64,000 nt of DNA from a virus (Duplodnaviria > Caudoviricetes), in the IMG/VR virus record IMGVR_UViG_3300032270_001157, positions 22,429 to 86,428 of that record; one strand, written 5' to 3'. The notes under the pieces were generated by a model. That model was not told the DNA's origin, searched no databases, and was given only the letters and a program-made list of their open reading frames with translations. Both the position numbers and the translations under genes were made by a program. Of the stretch, positions 5,001 through 54,780 are shown one piece after another. Within the stretch, counting starts at the first letter, position 1; the number at the start of each line of letters is the position of its first letter.

Positions 5001-7505
5001 TTTGCCTTGGTCATCACTCATAGCGTTAACAATAGTTGATCCTACAATCAAAGTATCATCAATCCAATTTCCTGGCTCTTCCCATGCTCCATCAGCTGAT
5101 ATTTGCCATTCTGGATAAATTTTACCAGTTCCTTGTTTAGCATAAATCCCGTCTGCTATCATTACAGAACCATTATCAAATAATGATGTGTCTTGATAAT
5201 ATCTTGGACTAGGAATTTTTACCATATACGTTTTGCCATAATGCTCCATAGCAATATTAGCAAAAAATTTATGTATTGCTTGTAAATTAGAATATAAAGT
5301 TTTAGTAAAAGGTGTTAAATTTTCTAAGCCAACCTGTCCACCTCTAGCATTACCATTTTGAACAGCTACTTGTTTTGACTTATTTGCCCAATTTATTGAA
5401 CGTAAACCGCTGATAAATTCGGACTTGGATCCATAATTTCCATATGACTGTCTAAATGCTTGATAACAAATTTCAGAAATATCTGTACTAAAAAAATTAT
5501 CAAAGCAATATGTTAACCATTGATCAAAGCCTTTACCAGCAGCTCTAAGCTCATTTTCTAAAACTAAAAATTTAGGGTTAACACTAATAATACCATCAAA
5601 TATAGGAGCTGATACTAATCCTTTAAGATCGTTCATATCGAACAAAATTTGCACTTGACTAAGACCAGGATCAAAATAAACTTTACGAGCTAAACCATCA
5701 GCTCCTTGTCCAAAATATGGACAAATCATATCGGTATATAATGGATGATTTTTTAATGTAGATGAAGCTACTAAGTTAATAACAGTGGAAATACTAACTC
5801 CATCTGTATAGTTACCTCTAGAGAAAGTTCTAGAATTAGTCCAAGGATCTATTGGATTTGGACCAGTGGTAAATGCCACTTGATCATTATAATTTCCGGG
5901 TGGATTTTCAGCCACGGCCGCACCACCACTATATAAACTAGAATATCTTCGTGTACTTAAAAAACTAGGCATTCTAGCTTGATTAGTTCCTGGCTGTCCC
6001 AGATTGCCATAATTTAAAAATGATCCAACACCGCCATTGGAAAAGGGGTCAAAAACTAATGTTGTCTGATTAGATACTAAAGATGTAGTTTTAAATTGTA
6101 ATAATCTTTTTTGTGGACCACCCAAATACATTGATCTTGTAGTTTGATCAGCATATTCTTGTCCATAGCTATATGAACTAATATTTAATCCATTAGCTGC
6201 TAATGCTGATACAAAATTTTTGATGACATTTTTTTGTGGCTGTAATCTACGAGAAACAGTATTAATCTTAAAGACACCACTACAATTACTTCCTGCTGGT
6301 GCTGGTTCTAAGGAGATAAAGAAATCAAATCCGGCCCCGTCACAAATATCGCTGATAAATTGCATTAAGCTAATAACTGGACCAGTGGTATATAGAGAGG
6401 GAGGAGGAGCTGGTACAGCACTTAGATCTAACTTATAAGCACCATGAAAAACTCCGTCTACATTATTAACGCCGGGACATATTCCACAATTCTTTAAAGT
6501 AACACGTCTTCCGTCAGCGTCGGTGATCACAGCTTGATTTACATTAACAAATGTTCCATTAGTTTCTGTGAGAGTACGACCCAAGATTGCCCCATAAGGA
6601 AAGAAGGGGTTGGTATCTGTTGTTCCTGGGGCGAGCATATTGACTAAAGCATTATAGATGTTTATTGCAGGAATTCCGTTATCCGTTCTTCCAGCATTAC
6701 CAAAACCAACTTGCTCCCAGTATCCATAAATATTAAAAACATTGGGTAAATTGCCTTGTCTTAAAGTAGCATTATGAGGCAAAAAAGATGCTGATGCATC
6801 ATAATGAGAGGGAACAGAGATATTCTCTCCAGTATAATTATCTGAGGTATTAGGCATACTAGAAGATACCGTACCAGCATAAGCATCTATAATTAGTTGA
6901 CATCCTTTTAATAAAGACGATCCATTCTTCATTTCAATTTCATATGTCGGGGAGCCACCTTGTGAACCCACAGCTTTCCACGAAGTAATTAATCCACCAA
7001 AATAAATATCTTCAAACCAGAAAACTGCGGGAACACCAATAAGATCATATCCGATAGAGGAAAATTTATTAGGTAAACCCAAAAATCCGGGATCTGGACC
7101 TAACCATCTGGCTGGAATACCATCAGATCCCTTGCATATTTTTCCAGGATCCATATTCTTTGCTGCTTGCTCTTCCAGATTTAAACTAATAGGTTTTAAT
7201 AAATTTCTGGTTACGTCTGCACTAACCTCCTCTGTTGTAGCATCAAGTCTTAATGCCTCAGAAGATCTGCTATTGGGTTGATTAACAGTAGATACTCTAC
7301 CACTTAAAGGATTATATTTAGTAGAGGCGGGATGATATGCTGTATCTTCTACCAAAGTCACTGTTAAAGAGCTAGAGTCCTCGCCCCATGCTAAATTCAT
7401 ATTAAAGTTTGTTATACTGCATCCTAAAAACAATGATTGTTCAAGAGGACCGACTTCTCTATATGATCCAACTGGACAAGAACTGCTAGACTGAATATTA
7501 GTCAT
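2055..7505 (-). CDS. Putative central tail-tip / baseplate hub protein (Tal/gp27-like N-terminus), 1816 aa
   Basis: Two genes downstream of the TMP. The N-terminal strands (LFLGCSITNFNMNLAWGEDSSSLTVTLVED; FGGLITSW) and MQFISDICDGAGFDFFISL resemble gp27/VgrG-type hub domains. SD-like AGGA upstream. Function inferred from context. Confidence 0.55.
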   Translation of the reverse strand: MTNIQSSSSCPVGSYREVGPLEQSLFLGCSITNFNMNLAWGEDSSSLTVTLVEDTAYHPASTKYNPLSGRVSTVNQPNSRSSEALRLDATTEEVSADVTRNLLKPISLNLEEQAAKNMDPGKICKGSDGIPARWLGPDPGFLGLPNKFSSIGYDLIGVPAVFWFEDIYFGGLITSWKAVGSQGGSPTYEIEMKNGSSLLKGCQLIIDAYAGTVSSSMPNTSDNYTGENISVPSHYDASASFLPHNATLRQGNLPNVFNIYGYWEQVGFGNAGRTDNGIPAINIYNALVNMLAPGTTDTNPFFPYGAILGRTLTETNGTFVNVNQAVITDADGRRVTLKNCGICPGVNNVDGVFHGAYKLDLSAVPAPPPSLYTTGPVISLMQFISDICDGAGFDFFISLEPAPAGSNCSGVFKINTVSRRLQPQKNVIKNFVSALAANGLNISSYSYGQEYADQTTRSMYLGGPQKRLLQFKTTSLVSNQTTLVFDPFSNGGVGSFLNYGNLGQPGTNQARMPSFLSTRRYSSLYSGGAAVAENPPGNYNDQVAFTTGPNPIDPWTNSRTFSRGNYTDGVSISTVINLVASSTLKNHPLYTDMICPYFGQGADGLARKVYFDPGLSQVQILFDMNDLKGLVSAPIFDGIISVNPKFLVLENELRAAGKGFDQWLTYCFDNFFSTDISEICYQAFRQSYGNYGSKSEFISGLRSINWANKSKQVAVQNGNARGGQVGLENLTPFTKTLYSNLQAIHKFFANIAMEHYGKTYMVKIPSPRYYQDTSLFDNGSVMIADGIYAKQGTGKIYPEWQISADGAWEEPGNWIDDTLIVGSTIVNAMSDDQGKIPPILGFSSHPEVNCREKWVAEKNIMAASLINSADCGSHIMTDWVALLNGRNATSATDERNNYYTSIHHSLPAEEYVDIPYRGVPSISYATAHGKPMPQDKVYKTYTKASCQQDFVFLEPEAELRVVISVSSPVYIGNHRNFEDVGLIHIMQGDALNKVVKGSSIPTPMINPLAAGQTTHGGLRRYPYPDYVYMDARSLIMHRFNDSSTIEILFGSNGGQITNESSENTSVLNKAANPFFAAIPVESVLATYGPWTNHPGLIENNIFGGRTNPSNDVNNLVGGIKVNHDAGLVPWNYGGMDALDAAVMAKIKDDVNYQQTTEQGSIQVPGAILLNLAGKAFNLGHALASSNDGFGGPIISSIQVQVGEGGITTNYNMRTYTRKLGFYNKENADRIKAIGAESLKRRKELSTSLLNVLGTLNNGPRYGSSINSGPGNIFDAILNHTQQPKMYQWSPFEILAGANSPIVHPDSAIGDIYRDLNYSPGWSKMPFVANNISYDPKNMIRESTNVSLQDVQELPRELKHGYANKSMMSLDGLLSPISFYPTPHGATFSITKYPRPGCPFCKGTAKYSYNFIDPDASITSSNININTITNSITSKTVDCPFCETIEDKTKKQLVSASPKETNPPYILASGDDLTLIGKNNLGTVSGLSGNPIINYGTLNPVLMSVGEFSSYPNRQLNDLTGHSIDLIGQGLTAPEGDNGLKPAYSKNIERSFLDYDQNYMDFTRLRGMNPATVPANNMRYFGLRGPLMVHGWGYDLEGYPVPNASGEPKVVNGEIVKDRVTGKIIYKNQTQKPDGTWTEPYKEHQFYKGWGQLPSTWPVGPVDLRWDANAGVWTVGANYKPVWVVLETDLVNRQPSRGAIIEDSYTNDPLPEGLRKLVFVQDNLGINPAPRKAPVYCKYNGQNGFYEPVYNKTYTTSGTIQGNTSVSIYNIYQDPNNTIDISYLTTFGNPMGFSVSNGDLGMFNFINGSWILQSVNC

Positions 7506-48541: not shown

Positions 48542-48974
48542 GATATTTAGCTTTAACTGAGGCTATCTTATCTTGCATATCTAAAAAAGCCTGGGAAGTT
48601 ACACCTTTCCACATCGCATCTAGTTGATCTCCTAATGACGGATATTCACTTCTTCGTAAGGCATAATAATCTGGAATGGATGGCTTTACGATCTCATCCT
48701 TACTAATGGGAGTCTCAATGGATTCTCCCGAAATCGGGTCAGGAAAACTTCTTGTTTTTGGTTCTAATTCTGTCCAAGCTAATTCTTTAAGGTCGATGTC
48801 ATTCAGGATCGACTGTTGGGCAGATTGAAGGAATTGGTCGATATTTTCTACATTAGGTGGAATAAAAATTTGCCAATTATAAGTATTATCGTTGTGTTGA
48901 ACTTCGATATAGGCCAGGGCCCTATTTTCATCTTGTAAATTAGATGCTAATCCTACTAAATTAATACTAGACAT
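48531..48974 (-). CDS. Putative tail-fibre assembly chaperone-like protein, 147 aa
   Basis: C-terminal Y..LRRSEYPSLGDQLDAMW...IASVKAKYPK motif is typical of small proteins encoded next to phage fibre genes. Confidence 0.6.
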   Translation of the reverse strand: MSSINLVGLASNLQDENRALAYIEVQHNDNTYNWQIFIPPNVENIDQFLQSAQQSILNDIDLKELAWTELEPKTRSFPDPISGESIETPISKDEIVKPSIPDYYALRRSEYPSLGDQLDAMWKGVTSQAFLDMQDKIASVKAKYPKT

Positions 48975-49800
48975 TTTCTGTCTCCTTATGGTTTGAACCC
49001 TTTGGTAGTCTTTCGTGCCATCTCTTGTCCAAATATGAACGGTCAGCTTCTGTTAATACTCCATTTACAGGAATGTTGGTGTGATAGTTTGTAAGATTAA
49101 CATCTGGATGGGCAGTATATTTTCCACTAGCTAAGTCGATATGTAAACACTGAACATTTGTATCTACTAGTATTGGAGTTCCCCTCCTATGAATTCGATG
49201 TATAAAGAAATTATCTTCTCCTATAAAAGGAATATCTTCAGCAACACCATTAGCAATACAGCAGAATGGTAGTTCTGGTTCTTCCTCTTTCATCTTCTTC
49301 AAGATCTCTACAGGAATAAGCATAGCATCCATACCACACATATGAGCTTTTAATAGCTGTCCCGGATCAACATTTGGGACTACTATCCAATTTTTTTCTT
49401 TAGTCATGATCATGGCATCGCCAAGCTTGATATAATAAACTCCAACAACTATACTACCAGGATTTTCTTCGGCAGTTTTATGAAGTGTTTTAAAGGCATG
49501 ATATGGAACAACAGTGTCTTCTCCAATAAAAAACATATATTTAGCATTACTCTCTAATACTTGTTCAATTAAATAGTTTCGAGCAACGTCCACCTTTTCT
49601 CCGTAAATATCACAAAATCCATGAGAAAATCCATGAAGATCAACGTGTTCTTCTCCTAGTCCTTGACGACCATTGAATTTTTGAGCTGGTTCTTCATTCT
49701 CACATCGTCGTGGTTGAGCAATTACAACATAAGGAGCAATATCTTTAGAGGTTTCTACAATATCTCTAAGAGTTTCCATTATTTTATCTTTACTATACAT
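48967..49800 (-). CDS. GT-A fold glycosyltransferase (GT2-like), 277 aa
   Basis: VDVARNYLIEQVL..KYMFFIGEDTVVP (GED in place of DxD), CGMDAMLIPVEIL, GEDNFF, VDTNVQCLH. Confidence 0.7.
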   Translation of the reverse strand: MYSKDKIMETLRDIVETSKDIAPYVVIAQPRRCENEEPAQKFNGRQGLGEEHVDLHGFSHGFCDIYGEKVDVARNYLIEQVLESNAKYMFFIGEDTVVPYHAFKTLHKTAEENPGSIVVGVYYIKLGDAMIMTKEKNWIVVPNVDPGQLLKAHMCGMDAMLIPVEILKKMKEEEPELPFCCIANGVAEDIPFIGEDNFFIHRIHRRGTPILVDTNVQCLHIDLASGKYTAHPDVNLTNYHTNIPVNGVLTEADRSYLDKRWHERLPKGSNHKETENV

Positions 49801-49817
49801 AATCTTATTTATACCTA

Positions 49818-50228
49818 TTATAATTTATTGAAAAATGAACTTAGTGCCATATTTTTAAAATCAAATCCACATAATGTACTAATTTCTTGTCCTCTATTTG
49901 CTGAACATGGAATGAAATTAATGTCTCCAGTAGAAGTTAACACTCCTCCATAATAAGCTCCAGTCGAGCTACTGTATAGTAAGGAGTATGTGCTAACTGT
50001 GCCAGCGATATTTATTTTTTGTCCAACAGCAGCAGCATATGGAATAAAATGCAAGTCCCCATTTGGAGCCAAAACTCCACCCTGATAGGCGCCACTACTA
50101 TTAGTATATACTAAACTATATGTACTTATTATTCCACTAATATTTATTTTTTGACCAACAGCTGCTGCCGAAGGAATAAAATGAGTATCCCCATTGCTTG
50201 CTAAAACTCCACCAGTATAAAGACCCAT
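49818..50228 (-). CDS. C-terminal half (blades 5-7) of a split beta-propeller protein, 136 aa
   Basis: Three GGVLxxNGDxHFIP repeats plus the family C-terminus SSFFNKL. It has its own RBS (AAGGAGA, 7 nt spacer). Confidence 0.8.
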   Translation of the reverse strand: MGLYTGGVLASNGDTHFIPSAAAVGQKINISGIISTYSLVYTNSSGAYQGGVLAPNGDLHFIPYAAAVGQKINIAGTVSTYSLLYSSSTGAYYGGVLTSTGDINFIPCSANRGQEISTLCGFDFKNMALSSFFNKL

Positions 50229-50240
50229 TATATAGTCTCC

Positions 50241-50726
50241 TTATTTTTGTAAACTTTCCCAAACAGCAATATCTTCAGCATAAATTTGTCTAACTATAGC
50301 TTCTTGCTCTAGTGTTAAAGTTGGCTTATTTGACTCTGTTGATGAGTCTATGTGAGGAAGAGATATCTGAATTCCCAGCCAATATGCACATTCTTGTAGT
50401 TGACTTTCAAACAAAAAATATTTAAAATCTCCTTTTGGAAGAGGCCCATAGACTGGTCGATCCAAATGTTCCAGAATAGTTCTTCCTGGCTTGTGGGCAC
50501 ACATGCTACGAAATCTTTCAATCGGGTTGCGCACTATGATAGCAGTATTTTCACAAGTTCCATTCCAATGTTCTTGAATAGGTAAATAACCGGCTGGATG
50601 TCCTTCCTCTCCAATAATGATTTCTGGCCAAAAAAAACGTAAGGCAGCAGTCGCTATTGAATGGCTTCCTGTTCTTGGCGTTAAAATTAGAGCATTTCCA
50701 TTTGGAACTCGTAAAATATTACCCAT
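50241..50726 (-). CDS. Sulfotransferase-family-2-like protein, 161 aa
   Basis: 5'-PSB-like ILTPRTGSHS, 3'-PB-like IVRNPIERFRS, and C-terminal LPHIDSS..VRQIYAEDI. Confidence 0.65.
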   Translation of the reverse strand: MGNILRVPNGNALILTPRTGSHSIATAALRFFWPEIIIGEEGHPAGYLPIQEHWNGTCENTAIIVRNPIERFRSMCAHKPGRTILEHLDRPVYGPLPKGDFKYFLFESQLQECAYWLGIQISLPHIDSSTESNKPTLTLEQEAIVRQIYAEDIAVWESLQK

Positions 50727-50738
50727 TAATTTTTCCTT

Positions 50739-52511
50739 TTATGTAAAGTATAATACCACTGCTCCTGCTCCAGCCAACCCATAACCATAGCCCTGATAAT
50801 TTACGGAACCTCCACCCAATCCAGCATTATGAGATAGAACATATTTTCCAACACCTGCACCCGCACCAAAAGCAGCAACAGTAGTACTAGAACAAGTCGC
50901 TGTTGTGCTTGATCCCGCTAAAGCTAGAGCAGCAAACAATCCGGATATGTCAGAAGCAGGGCGACGATTACAAGCCAATGTAGAAGCAGCGTTACCCCCA
51001 ACAGCCCCTCCATTAAAATTACTATAGCCTCCATCAATCGTTCCAGCTCCTCCGTTTGATCCTCCATCCCCGCCAGAAAAAGTACCTCCAGAACCAGCAT
51101 TAGCACCACCGCCAGACACTTGTCCTCCTGAGCCAGTGATGGTTACTCCTCCATATGTTACTGTTGTATTTCCTCCGGATGCTGGCGTGTTACTGCCAGC
51201 AGCACCTATGGAATAGGTTACGCTAGACCCACCAGTAACGGAATAGGTTCTATAAGAACATCCTCCAGCACCTCCAGCAAGACTCGCAGTACCATTTGCT
51301 CCACCGCCTCCACCAACAGCCCAAGCTTTCATACTAGTAGCTCCAACAGGAACCGTATATGAAGATCCACTGGTTAATAGTGTTGCCATCGGAGTAAATG
51401 CTGCTGATTCCCACCAAATATTGAGTGCTGATCCCCAGCTAATATAATCAGTACCACCGGCAGTTCCAAGTCTAATAGTATCATTTGCATTCACAGAAAT
51501 AGTAGCATTTACAACACCCAACTGAAATCCATTTCCTCCACTATTATCCGTATATGTTACTGCTGCTACTCCATTTTTGTAAATTACAAAATCGATATCG
51601 CAGCTAAGGTTGCTACAAGTTATTCTAACAGTTCCTGTTGATGTTACCGTCGCTTGCGCTCCATCTGCTGCTGGATTATTAGTAAAGGTTGCCTTCGTAT
51701 AAGGACTAGCAGATGTTCCACTACCTGTAAATCCGATTGCATTCCACGCACTGTTGAAGCTAGTAAATGTTGCTCCTCCACCAGCACTAACAGTATAAAC
51801 CAGACTATAAGTACTTACTATTCCAGCGCTACTAATTTTTTGTCCAACAGTAGCATCAAATGGAATAAAAACGATGTCTCCATTGGGAGATAGCACTCCA
51901 CCAGCATAGGCTCCAGAAGTTGTATATACTAAACTATAAGTACTAACAACACCAGCAGTACTGATTTTCTGACCTCTGTTAGCATTGTATGGTATAAAAT
52001 GAGTTTCTCCACTAGTTGATAAGACTCCACCCTGATATGCCAATGAAGTAGTATAAACCAAACTATACGTACTCACCACACTAGAACTATTTAATTTTTG
52101 ACCAACAGCCGCACTAGATGGAATAAAATTAATGTCACCATTTGGAGCTAAAACTCCACCAGCATAAGCTGCCGATACAGTAGAATAAACCAAACTGTAT
52201 GTACTCACAGTTCCAGCAGAGCTTATTCTTTGACCTCTATTAGCGTTGAATGGTATAAAATGTATGTCTCCGTTTGCATTCAATACTCCACCGATATAAG
52301 CCGAAGATGTTGTGTAGACCAGACTATATGTGCTTATAATAGCGTTTGTGAAAACAGAGGAACCAGTTGTGGATTCATCTAATATGGTTTTTAATTTATT
52401 CCATGCCACAAGACCAGTATCAATAGAACTATTGTTGCTAGATGGGACTGTTCCATTAACAAGATTTTGAACTTCGCTAATAAATTGTGGTGAATTTAAT
52501 CTTGTGCTCAT
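50739..52511 (-). CDS. Chimeric protein: propeller N-domain + 4 blades fused to a beta-sandwich module and a glycine-rich domain, 590 aa
   Basis: Four complete ~43-aa repeats, then an abrupt switch at ~51785 to FTGSGT..IWW, then TSGSSYTVPVGATSMKAWAVGGGGG (a Gly-rich phage domain). Confidence 0.8.
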   Translation of the reverse strand: MSTRLNSPQFISEVQNLVNGTVPSSNNSSIDTGLVAWNKLKTILDESTTGSSVFTNAIISTYSLVYTTSSAYIGGVLNANGDIHFIPFNANRGQRISSAGTVSTYSLVYSTVSAAYAGGVLAPNGDINFIPSSAAVGQKLNSSSVVSTYSLVYTTSLAYQGGVLSTSGETHFIPYNANRGQKISTAGVVSTYSLVYTTSGAYAGGVLSPNGDIVFIPFDATVGQKISSAGIVSTYSLVYTVSAGGGATFTSFNSAWNAIGFTGSGTSASPYTKATFTNNPAADGAQATVTSTGTVRITCSNLSCDIDFVIYKNGVAAVTYTDNSGGNGFQLGVVNATISVNANDTIRLGTAGGTDYISWGSALNIWWESAAFTPMATLLTSGSSYTVPVGATSMKAWAVGGGGGANGTASLAGGAGGCSYRTYSVTGGSSVTYSIGAAGSNTPASGGNTTVTYGGVTITGSGGQVSGGGANAGSGGTFSGGDGGSNGGAGTIDGGYSNFNGGAVGGNAASTLACNRRPASDISGLFAALALAGSSTTATCSSTTVAAFGAGAGVGKYVLSHNAGLGGGSVNYQGYGYGLAGAGAVVLYFT

Positions 52512-52512
52512 A

Positions 52513-53622
52513 TTAGAACTTATTTAAAAAAGGAGAATAACATAATCCAAAATTGAACGGTTTTGCTGGTAGAGTGGATATTTTTTGTCCAACTGTAGCT
52601 GAGCTAGGTATTAAATGTATATCTCCATTAGAAGTTAAGACACCTCCAAAATAACTGCCCGATGTATTATTTACACTATATGTACTTACTACTCCAGCAT
52701 TACTAATTTTTTGACCAATAGAGCGTACTGGTACAAAATATATATCACCATTAGGACTTAAAACTCCACCAACATAAGCTCCGCTAGAATTAGTATAAAT
52801 AAGACTATATGTACTGATCACCCCATTAATATTTATTTTTTGACCGACACTAGCGAAGTAAGGAACAAAATGAATATCTCCATTACTAGATAAAACCCCT
52901 CCACAATACCCTTCGTTTATACTATAAACTAAACCATAGGTACTTACAATTCCAGAGCTGTTAATCTTTTGTCCAACAGCAGCAGCATATGGCACAAAAT
53001 GAATATCCCCATTCGGTGCTAAAACTCCTCCGAAATATCCTCCTACAACAATCAAACTATATGTGCTAATAACACCAGTGCTATTTATTTTTTGTCCTAC
53101 TCTAGCTGCTCTGGGTATAAAATGAATATCCCCATTAGGAGCTAAAACCCCACCATAATAACTACTAGATGTAGCAGTATATATTAAACTATAGGTGCTA
53201 ACTACTCCATTGACATCTACTTTTTGCCCCACAGCAGCTGTAGCTGGTACAAAATGTATATCTCCATTTGGAGCTAGCACGCCACCGCTGTAAATATTAG
53301 AAGAATATACTAAACTATAGGTACTAACTGCTCCACTAGGTGTTATTTTTTGTCCTCTGGGGGTGCCATTTGGAATAAAGTGCACATCACCATTCTGCAT
53401 AAGAATACCACCAGAATAGCCTCCACTAATGATACTATATGTACTTACTATTCCTTGACTAAAAGCCGTTCCATTATTAGCTGACTTCTCTAATAGTGTC
53501 TTGATTTTATTCCAAGCAACTAGATCACTACCTATGCTACTATTATCACAAGTCGGGATAGCTCCCCTTGCTTTGTTTTGAACTTCCGTTCTCCATGTTG
53601 GTGATATGTCGTATATTGGCAT
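52513..53622 (-). CDS. Seven-repeat beta-propeller protein, 369 aa
   Basis: Seven STYSLxY..YxGGVLAPNGDIHFxP...GQKI repeats, with the conserved N-domain and SPFLNKF end. Confidence 0.8.
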   Translation of the reverse strand: MPIYDISPTWRTEVQNKARGAIPTCDNSSIGSDLVAWNKIKTLLEKSANNGTAFSQGIVSTYSIISGGYSGGILMQNGDVHFIPNGTPRGQKITPSGAVSTYSLVYSSNIYSGGVLAPNGDIHFVPATAAVGQKVDVNGVVSTYSLIYTATSSSYYGGVLAPNGDIHFIPRAARVGQKINSTGVISTYSLIVVGGYFGGVLAPNGDIHFVPYAAAVGQKINSSGIVSTYGLVYSINEGYCGGVLSSNGDIHFVPYFASVGQKININGVISTYSLIYTNSSGAYVGGVLSPNGDIYFVPVRSIGQKISNAGVVSTYSVNNTSGSYFGGVLTSNGDIHLIPSSATVGQKISTLPAKPFNFGLCYSPFLNKF

Positions 53623-53625
53623 AGT

Positions 53626-54780
53626 TTAAAATTTGTTTAAGAAGGATGAACAACAAGTTCCAATATCAAAAGGAAGGGCTGCTGTGGTGGATATTTTTTG
53701 TCCTATAGTAGCTGAATATTGAATAAGATATATATCTCCATTTGGAGTCAATATTCCTCCAATATAGCCTAGTCCGGTCGTATAGAATAAGCTATAAGTG
53801 CTCACAACGCCTGAGCTATTAATTTTTTGTCCTCTATTGGCAGAAGATGGTACGAAATGTATATCTCCATTCGGAGATAATACTCCTCCCATATAGCTAT
53901 TAGTTGTTGTGTATACTAGACTGTATGTACTAACAACTCCGCTACTATTTATTTTTTGTCCCCTATTAGCACTTCTAGGCACAAAATGAATGTCTCCATT
54001 TGGAGCCAAAACTCCTCCTTGATAAGCTGCTCCGGTGGTATAGATTAAAGAATAAGTACTAACCACACCAGAAGAGCTTATTTTTTGTCCTCTATTTGCA
54101 TTATAAGGAACAAAATGTATGTCTCCGTTCGGAGCCAATATTCCTCCTATATAAGCAACACTATTAGTCGAAGTTATTGAGTAGACTAAACTATATGTAC
54201 TAACAACACCAGAGATACTAACTTTCTGACCTACTGGAGTTGAACCCGGAATAAAATGTATGTCTCCATTGGGACCCAGTATTCCTCCACAATACGCTGA
54301 TGCTGCATTGGTGTAAACCAAACTATATGTGCTTACAACTCCATTAATATTTATCTTTTGTCCTCTATTACAATTAGCGTTAGGAATGAAATGTATATCT
54401 CCATTAGCAGCCAATACCCCCTGACTATATGCTCCAGAATTATTGGTGTAAATCAAACTATAAGTACTAACTATTCCACTAAATATGTTTACTTTTTGCC
54501 CACGATTAGCAAAAGATGGCACAAAATGAATATCTCCGTTTGGAGCCAAAACTCCTCCTTGATATGCTTGGACTACTGTATTGACCAAACTATAAGTACT
54601 AGTTATAGGATTACTAAAAATGCTCCCAGCAGTAACGCTCTTATTCAAAAGACTCTTGAAATCTCTCCAAGCCACCAAGAAAGAATCAATGCTACTATTG
54701 TCGCCAGCTGGCAAAACTCCATTGGCTGCATCTTGAACATTTTCTGCCCATTTTGGAGATATAAGATTGATGTCTGGCAT
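53626..54780 (-). CDS. Seven-repeat beta-propeller protein (paralog), 384 aa
   Basis: Seven repeats of the same unit; ends SSFLNKF. Confidence 0.8.
   Translation of the reverse strand: MPDINLISPKWAENVQDAANGVLPAGDNSSIDSFLVAWRDFKSLLNKSVTAGSIFSNPITSTYSLVNTVVQAYQGGVLAPNGDIHFVPSFANRGQKVNIFSGIVSTYSLIYTNNSGAYSQGVLAANGDIHFIPNANCNRGQKININGVVSTYSLVYTNAASAYCGGILGPNGDIHFIPGSTPVGQKVSISGVVSTYSLVYSITSTNSVAYIGGILAPNGDIHFVPYNANRGQKISSSGVVSTYSLIYTTGAAYQGGVLAPNGDIHFVPRSANRGQKINSSGVVSTYSLVYTTTNSYMGGVLSPNGDIHFVPSSANRGQKINSSGVVSTYSLFYTTGLGYIGGILTPNGDIYLIQYSATIGQKISTTAALPFDIGTCCSSFLNKF

Follow-up and report, generated by a model that had tools for sequence, protein, structure and literature searches.

A phage propeller gene interrupted by a fibre-tip module, with both gene fragments maintained

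What becomes of a seven-bladed propeller when the gene that encodes it is cut in two by an insertion? The question is raised by a locus in a 64,000-nucleotide stretch of DNA (hereafter, the window) that is part of an 86-kb IMG/VR viral contig (IMGVR_UViG_3300032270_001157); the source is a large freshwater phage and the locus lies in its fibre module. Two intact propeller paralogs (P1 and P2) are followed by a third gene, P3, which is split into the propeller part (P3N) of an open reading frame (ORF) of 590 amino acids (aa) and a separate ORF of 136 aa (P3C). Comparison with relatives, which are phage contigs of 160-238 kb designated here by numbers such as L008, places the split in an ancestor of at least four phages and indicates that both fragments have been under strong purifying selection since. 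Sequence comparison, structure modelling and analogy taken together make it rather probable that the two halves reassemble in trans into one ring.

P1 and P2 have an N-terminal domain of ~55 aa (N-domain), seven repeats of ~43 aa with the pattern VSTYSLVYT ... GGVLAPNGDIHF[IV]P ... GQKI, and an FLNKF tail. In the 590-aa ORF, the N-domain is followed by repeats 1-4, and the propeller sequence stops after the first strand of repeat 5 (...VSTYSLVYT), at residue 240 (nucleotide 51792), while the 136-aa ORF starts with MGLYTGGVL, the remainder of repeat 5, continues through repeats 6-7 and ends in SSFFNKL as part of a P3-specific tail (GFDFKN.ALSSFFNKL). Nothing is lost at the protein level: the N-half ends in ...VYT plus 2-3 residues, and the C-half begins with MG-[LI]-Y-x-GGVL. 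An uninterrupted P3 allele of 376 aa occupies the matching position in L008/L011, as the third gene of the cluster, and is 73% identical to the N-half and 68% identical to the 136-aa ORF; its tail is of the P3 type (STLSGFDFKN-ALS-FFNK), and it directly precedes a glycosyltransferase that is 98% identical to that of the window. Three intact tandem paralogs are also present in L025/L026, L029, L037-L040, L042, L044 and L051. By nucleotide alignment to the L008 allele, the insert comprises window positions 50215-51785 (1,571 nucleotides, nt). The Shine-Dalgarno sequence AAGGAG, located 8 nt upstream of the ATG of the 136-aa ORF, overlaps the stop codon of the preceding gene, whose product is assigned to the sulfotransferase fold below.

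The initial annotation of this DNA, made from the letters and the ORF translations, had described P1 and P2 as intact proteins with N-domain, seven repeats and FLNKF end, the 590-aa ORF as carrying the N-domain and repeats 1-4 and breaking within repeat 5, and the 136-aa ORF as resuming repeat 5 and ending in SSFFNKL; these descriptions agree with the translations throughout. Its view of the locus as a natural split of a seven-blade propeller gene by an insertion gains from the uninterrupted allele, which was found in L008/L011 and other phages by the search of relatives that it had suggested. As to the insert limits that it had given (50229-51785), the end stands, whereas the alignment to L008 moves the start to 50215. 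The features are as follows, with the basis of each in brackets.

53626-54780, minus strand: P1, intact paralog, 384 aa, seven blades (ORF list).
52513-53622, minus strand: P2, intact paralog, 369 aa, seven blades (ORF list).
50739-52511, minus strand: 590-aa ORF, i.e., P3N plus insert-derived domains (ORF list).
52347-52511, minus strand: residues 1-55 of P3N, N-terminal domain common to the three paralogs (alignments).
51792-52346, minus strand: residues 56-240 of P3N, assigned as first strand and blades 1-4, ending in VSTYSLVYT (alignment and strands of the ortholog model).
51402-51791, minus strand: linker and extra domain of ~125 aa, residues 241-370 (homology to fibre-tip proteins).
50742-51401, minus strand: Gly_rich_2 (PF21722) C-terminal domain, residues 371-590, fused in frame (Pfam and homologs).
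50241-50726, minus strand: gene for the 161-aa protein with predicted sulfotransferase fold (AlphaFold2 model and structural matches).
50237-50242, minus strand: AAGGAG Shine-Dalgarno sequence of the 136-aa ORF (sequence, kept in relatives).
49818-50228, minus strand: P3C, 136 aa, assigned as blades 5-6 plus the inner three strands of blade 7, and ending in the P3-specific tail (alignments, tree and substitution ratios).
48967-49800: glycosyltransferase-like gene, 277 aa, downstream of P3C.

Identical architecture and breakpoints recur in four diverged assemblies, namely the window, L007 (a 230-kb contig), L024 (238 kb) and L036 (a metagenome contig), and fragment P0002 adds a fifth split example; the halves thus co-occur in all four contigs (4/4) and in the fragment. 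In the tree, the four C-halves form one clade with a Shimodaira-Hasegawa-like approximate likelihood ratio test (SH-aLRT) support of 99, and their nearest neighbour is the intact P3 of L008. Synonymous divergence (dS) among the four split phages amounts to 0.6-1.5, at which the ratio of non-synonymous to synonymous divergence (dN/dS) is 0.07-0.16 for P3C and 0.08-0.12 for P3N, as compared with 0.16-0.21 for P1 and P2; the deficit of non-synonymous changes in P3C is significant in every pair (Fisher p below 1e-11). Conservation is even over every blade of both halves (0.80-0.90), and over the N-domain (residues 1-55) the pairwise identity of the four split alleles averages 87%. The Shine-Dalgarno sequence of the C-half reads AAGGAG in L007 and L024 and AAGGA in L036; in L007, the C-half ORF overlaps the upstream stop codon (TAATG), and in L036, where the C-half comes after a reverse-strand gene and a 95-nt spacer, AAGGA is still kept. 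The strong ribosome-binding site that had been noted for the window copy is, in other words, a conserved trait, and the absence of frameshifts and stop codons extends to all four diverged copies. In two scans of the collection, all matches with at least 79% identity to the C-half were split alleles, and intact genes were found at 68% or less; for proteins longer than P3C and closer than 71%, the search was ranked by total score, which favours multi-propeller proteins, and it constitutes weak evidence against an intact allele inside the split clade.

The fold of the family was assessed on the uninterrupted ortholog, L008 P3, for which an AlphaFold2 (AF2) model was made with a 25-sequence alignment; the fold match is, hence, that of the intact ortholog rather than of the split proteins. 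The model, with a predicted local distance difference test (pLDDT) score of 81, contains 28 strands and a helical N-domain of low pLDDT that is poorly modelled. Foldseek returned virginiamycin B lyase (Vgb; 2qc5) as the top match (E 3e-23; template modelling (TM) score 0.89 by target), followed by the designed propellers Pizza (six blades, NHL-type) and WRAP-T (seven blades). Because of the strands and of the match to the lyase, the P3 family is predicted to be a seven-blade propeller of the virginiamycin-B-lyase/NHL type. Scores for the Pfam family Vgb_lyase (PF24684) stay below the gathering cut-off of 50 bits, with 45.5 and 36.6 bits for P1/P2 and 20-33 bits for the split fusions of the relatives; a precomputed PF24684 match is present on many database homologs.

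Where does the cut lie with respect to the blades? In the L008 P3 model, the loops leading from VSTYS to GGVL have 10-11 residues and the other three loops of each repeat 4-5, and the strand pattern parallels that of the Pizza/NHL designer propellers. Because the VSTYS-GGVL loop is long, it was placed at the blade boundary, as is expected of the crossing from an outer strand to the next inner strand. On this assignment, a blade would consist of the strands GGVL / HF[IV]P / GQKI / VSTYS, the first strand of the protein would close the last blade in the manner of a velcro strand, and the cut would fall in the loop by which the chain passes from blade 4, at its outer strand, to blade 5, at its inner strand.

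The insert itself contributes an in-frame extension of P3N and a separate gene. The last 220 residues of the 590-aa fusion are a Gly_rich_2 domain (PF21722), with 24.5 bits and E 3e-5 when scanned alone (cut-off 24.3 bits), so that the Gly-rich domain of the initial annotation now carries a family name; the whole 590-aa protein scores 20.3 bits, and PF21722 matches 10 of 13 homologous domains (best E 1.5e-10). A search of PDB sequences with a profile of the domain gave chance-level rows only. It is likely the receptor-binding tip of the fusion. The domain is 85% identical in amino-acid sequence to the end of a 927-aa LamG/fn3 fibre protein in L057, a related phage with no propeller genes in the stretch read; at the nucleotide level, window positions 51399-50243, i.e., exactly the Gly-rich domain and the small gene, are 85% identical to L057 and 80% to L059. 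This pair ends unrelated fibre genes in L012-L014, L016-L023, L057 and L059; in L012-L014 and L016-L023, the cassette-bearing fibre proteins comprise 237-1,224 aa with fn3, LamG and collagen-like parts, and the small gene comes directly after. Altogether, a C-terminal Gly_rich_2 domain is found on fibre genes in at least 14 other contigs, including L015, where the domain alone is visible and the contig ends, and the cassette-bearing phages differ widely in guanine-plus-cytosine (G+C) content. As judged from these sequences, the Gly_rich_2 domain and the sulfotransferase-fold gene make up a portable tail-fibre tip module.

Residues 241-370 of the window fusion, which separate blade 4 from the Gly-rich domain, comprise a linker and an extra domain of ~125 aa that L007, L024 and L036 lack and that the initial annotation had described as a beta-sandwich. 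Small fibre-tip proteins that stand alone in L055/L054 and in L056 end in a domain with which it shares 65% and 42% identity, respectively, so that it is another portable tip domain. The cassettes of the other split phages are 50-64% identical to that of the window at the amino-acid level, while the flanking halves are 79-89% identical, and L036 has a shorter Gly-rich variant without the sulfotransferase-fold gene. The cargo between the P3 halves has been exchanged since the split, by recombination with cassettes of other fibre genes. In view of the cassette identities, the extra domain of the window and an alginate lyase gene in L036, the break acts as a site of turnover for tip modules, with the propeller pieces staying.

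Several details of these modules may be added. The homologs of the extra domain (L055:2893-3366 and L056:2854-3360) are proteins of 157-168 aa encoded after long fibre genes in high-G+C phages. The alginate lyase (PF05426) of L036 lies between the halves on the reverse strand (L036:3298-4621, minus strand) and is encoded in two ORFs, which cover model positions 2-162 and 204-275. The Gly-rich domain of the same phage is devoid of the segment around a conserved Cys-x-R ... D-x-SGL, which may mean that the enzyme and its target loop were lost together. The 3' two-thirds of the window's sulfotransferase-fold gene (50243-50551) are ~84% identical to L007 at the nucleotide level, within one long collinear block running downstream; since the 5' third of the gene and the Gly-rich domain do not align to L007, a recombination joint inside the sulfotransferase-fold gene is suggested.

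For the 161-aa protein, the AF2 model (pLDDT 89.6) found sulfotransferases in all of the best 16 of 48,161 chains compared by VIA-align, with Z 8.3 over 150/161 residues for heparan sulfate (HS) 6-O-sulfotransferase (6-O-ST) and Z 7.9 for HS 2-O-ST. The top rows of Foldseek were sulfotransferases as well, at weak E-values of 0.08-1, and the neighbours of the protein in the ESM Atlas are viral clusters with Sulfotransfer_2 (PF03567) in 59-91% of members. A sulfotransferase fold is thus predicted for the product, consistent with the sulfotransferase gene that the initial annotation had placed here. Pfam assigned no family to six members of the 161-aa family, even at E up to 10, and the family profile gave chance-level rows only against PDB sequences. 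Among 11 diverse members, the motifs PR[ST][GA]SHS and RNPxERFxS vary hardly or not at all, and we take them to resemble the 5'-phosphosulfate-binding (5'-PSB) and 3'-phosphate-binding (3'-PB; RxPxxRxxS) motifs that bind 3'-phosphoadenosine-5'-phosphosulfate (PAPS). Typical sulfotransferase enzymes have 240 aa or more, compared with ~160 aa in this family, which numbers at least 384 members that carry no source name beyond "hypothetical protein". The small protein could act on the Gly-rich domain or assist it, either as an enzyme or as a chaperone. In the literature searched, we did not find this combination of a miniature sulfotransferase-fold protein and a Gly_rich_2 tip described.

How, then, might two maintained halves of one propeller operate? 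In the ancestor of at least four phages, a portable tip module interrupted P3 between the VSTYSLVYT and GGVL strands of repeat 5; the upstream fragment is fused in frame to a tip domain, and the downstream fragment has its own ATG and Shine-Dalgarno sequence. We propose that blade 7 is shared between the fragments, with its three inner strands contributed by P3C and its outer (velcro) strand by the first strand of P3N; each piece would, therefore, need the other for a ring. P3N and P3C would associate non-covalently into a seven-blade ring, 4+3, bridged by the velcro strand, and the Gly-rich adhesin would project from the rim between blades 4 and 5, with the 4/5 interface unblocked. In this way, the phage would retain the P3 propeller and gain a swappable receptor-binding tip. 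Non-covalent reassembly is considered likely because the cut is at a blade boundary, the velcro strand is on the N-fragment and both halves are equally conserved; their equally slow evolution and strict co-occurrence fit with it. Three points weigh against this proposal. The assignment of the velcro strand rests on loop lengths and analogy; purifying selection means that each half is functional, not that the two act jointly; and short-tract recombination of the split into intact alleles could make part of the constraint predate the split. The last point is countered by the observations that the split alleles form one clade over their whole length and that the close matches (at least 79%) in the two scans are all split.

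The second of these points leads to the alternative that both halves are functional but separate, in which case P3N would pair with itself or its four blades would serve the Gly-rich tip solely as stalk or adaptor, and P3C would be a homo-oligomeric propeller (e.g., 2 x 3 blades) or bind another partner. Propeller fragments with identical blades can indeed fold as homo-oligomers (10.1101/723619), Pizza2 fragments self-assemble to a full propeller (PMC7337062), and short family members with the N-domain and two or three repeats are called in T4-like contigs; selection by itself is, moreover, no proof of a partnership. On the other hand, P3C is without the N-domain and the outer strand of the last blade, which by our assignment is on P3N, and the halves evolve equally slowly and are always found together. 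The short forms come from sibling short-read assemblies, have near-identical repeats and vary between two, three and six of them among orthologs, which looks like repeat collapse. Separate action of the halves therefore seems unlikely to us, although it deserves to be kept in mind. That the 136-aa ORF is a decaying remnant of the insertion, not made or not needed, would be in keeping with its being the 3' leftover of an interrupted gene, and the initial annotation had named independent decay as the outcome that would speak against a working split. This is very improbable and rejected here because of the low dN/dS, the conserved ribosome site and the close matches in the two scans being all split alleles; besides, ATG and reading frame are intact in the diverged copies, and the ORF is more conserved than the intact P1 and P2. 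Finally, the halves could be rejoined at the RNA or protein level, by an intron, an intein or translational bypass, or the split could be an artefact of assembly. Phage genes can carry introns and inteins, and L061 has an intein-bearing portal. The insert, however, runs in frame into a conserved domain with a stop codon and contains a separate conserved gene; Rfam, intron families included, gave no match over 49500-52800 at E up to 1; Pfam detected no intein domain in the 590-aa protein; and an artefact is hard to reconcile with identical architecture in four independent, diverged assemblies. We regard rejoining and artefact as practically negligible.

If the halves reassemble as proposed, a further step can be tentatively considered, namely that P3 has a maintained "cargo bay" where blades 4 and 5 meet, with the ring re-forming around the break and an interchangeable adhesin/enzyme module on its rim. 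Such modules would include Gly-rich tips of different lineages, the extra tip domain or the nearby alginate lyase gene. A cargo bay of this kind would be a natural split-protein display scaffold, in which receptor-binding tips are swapped without loss of propeller function.

The surroundings of P3 bear on its possible position in the virion. Every gene around P3 is on the minus strand; a 663-aa LamG-type fibre and a 307-aa fibre with a conserved C-terminal domain precede P1 and P2, which are followed by the 590-aa, 161-aa and 136-aa ORFs and the 277-aa glycosyltransferase-like gene. In every relative read through the whole cluster, the three paralogs stand in tandem directly after a collagen-like-repeat fibre gene with a conserved C-terminal domain (window 49818-54780, L008, L025, L029, L038, L040, L044 and L051). 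Because of this invariable order, a trimeric fibre tip is suggested in which each chain carries one propeller protein, docked via the common N-domain; residues 1-55 of P3N would accordingly have a docking role. As a side observation, the glycosyltransferase-like protein (48967-49800) is 97-98% identical among phages whose adjacent genes show 65-89%, with a dN/dS of ~0.02 at dS 0.7-0.9, a far stronger constraint than anything nearby.

Two candidates for further incomplete or split propellers were rejected. The short members with two or three repeats (P0006, P0075, P0095) were considered as natural incomplete propellers; their orthologs, in sibling short-read assemblies, carry two, three or six near-identical repeats, and repeat collapse is the more likely cause. 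Orthologous propellers with two, three or six repeats were seen in T4-like contigs of one sequencing project (L035:6001-6612, L060:3005-4489, L061:4001-5407). Since repeat collapse in short-read assembly looks likely, repeat counts in the family need caution. In L032, the second paralog (ORFs of 350 aa and 85 aa; 5990-6140) resembles a second cargo split; its frameshift lies right after a repeated GGVLA-coding stretch and looks like a short tandem duplication, arisen by mutation or assembly error. The intein-bearing portal gene of L061 (L061:1-2475) is of the T4 type, with matches to Pfam intein-splicing domains in two places.

In the phage collection, neither megablast of the region nor tblastn of the 161-aa ORF produced a match, and the 590-aa protein matched Cylindrospermopsis phages only, at 33% identity. 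PHROGs had no match for P3N, P3C or the 161-aa ORF. Scans for promoters and terminators yielded sites no more numerous than in shuffled sequence and are uninformative on a separate P3C promoter.

Few natural proteins are known in which two genes together still yield a single fold, and for most of them the intact ancestor allele and a set of descendants are both missing. For P3, there are an allele without the interruption, four diverged alleles with it and several donor cassettes, from which the evolutionary path can be read: the insertion came at what appears to be a blade boundary, a start codon and a ribosome site were gained, and long retention with exchange of the cargo followed. Propellers completed in trans and the shuffling of fibre-tip modules are already known. 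New are (i) a whole-blade 4+3 split caused by cargo insertion, with cargo turnover at the break, (ii) the availability of ancestor allele, several maintained descendants and donor cassettes for one and the same split, and (iii) Gly_rich_2 tips paired with a miniature sulfotransferase-fold protein. Should the halves reassemble, P3 would provide a natural precedent for split-propeller display scaffolds, and phages would be seen to add or swap host-recognition tips inside a structural gene and not just at its end. The widespread pairing of Gly_rich_2 and sulfotransferase-fold protein suggests either that sulfation is associated with a phage receptor-binding protein or that the small protein is a novel type of fibre-tip helper.

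Among known systems, Vgb (PDB 2qc5, 2z2n) and the NHL/Pizza propellers are closest in fold. The intact ortholog is modelled as a ring of seven four-stranded blades with a TM score of 0.89-0.90 to Vgb, P1 and P2 have sub-threshold matches to PF24684, and the repeat pattern is Pizza/NHL-like. In contrast to Vgb, with which identity is ~20% and under whose Pfam cut-off the window paralogs remain, the propeller here is encoded in the fibre module of a phage and is flanked by a conserved N-domain and a conserved C-tail; thus, a binding role is more likely than lyase activity.

With respect to the tip, glycine-rich distal domains with a downstream helper gene are receptor-binding tips in Pam3 (gp24 with chaperone gp25) and S16 (gp38) (PMC9608196). 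The window module shares with them a C-terminal glycine-rich distal domain directly followed by a small partner gene, and domain and partner gene move between fibre genes as a unit. It differs in that the domain is Pfam Gly_rich_2, without a sequence match to solved structures, in that the partner has a predicted sulfotransferase fold and not a known fibre-chaperone fold, and in that the module was inserted midway into a propeller gene and not added at a fibre end.

As regards the ring, whole-blade fragments of this fold class rebuild a closed ring in the Pizza2 trimer and in oligomeric designed propellers; these are, however, homo-oligomers of identical designed blades, whereas P3 consists of two different natural fragments and would be a hetero-dimer. 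The Sec13 and Seh1 propellers are completed by a blade from Nup145C and Nup85, respectively. In the recently solved nozzle of phage A1002, a propeller is likewise completed in trans by a second protein (PMC13730344), and there, too, a phage tail protein had a single-chain ancestor. One ring from two polypeptides is a matter of solved structures in these cases, and in P3 it is an assembly that we infer. Unlike both, P3 is split into 4+3 whole blades, by the insertion of a cargo that is fused to one half and has been exchanged since.

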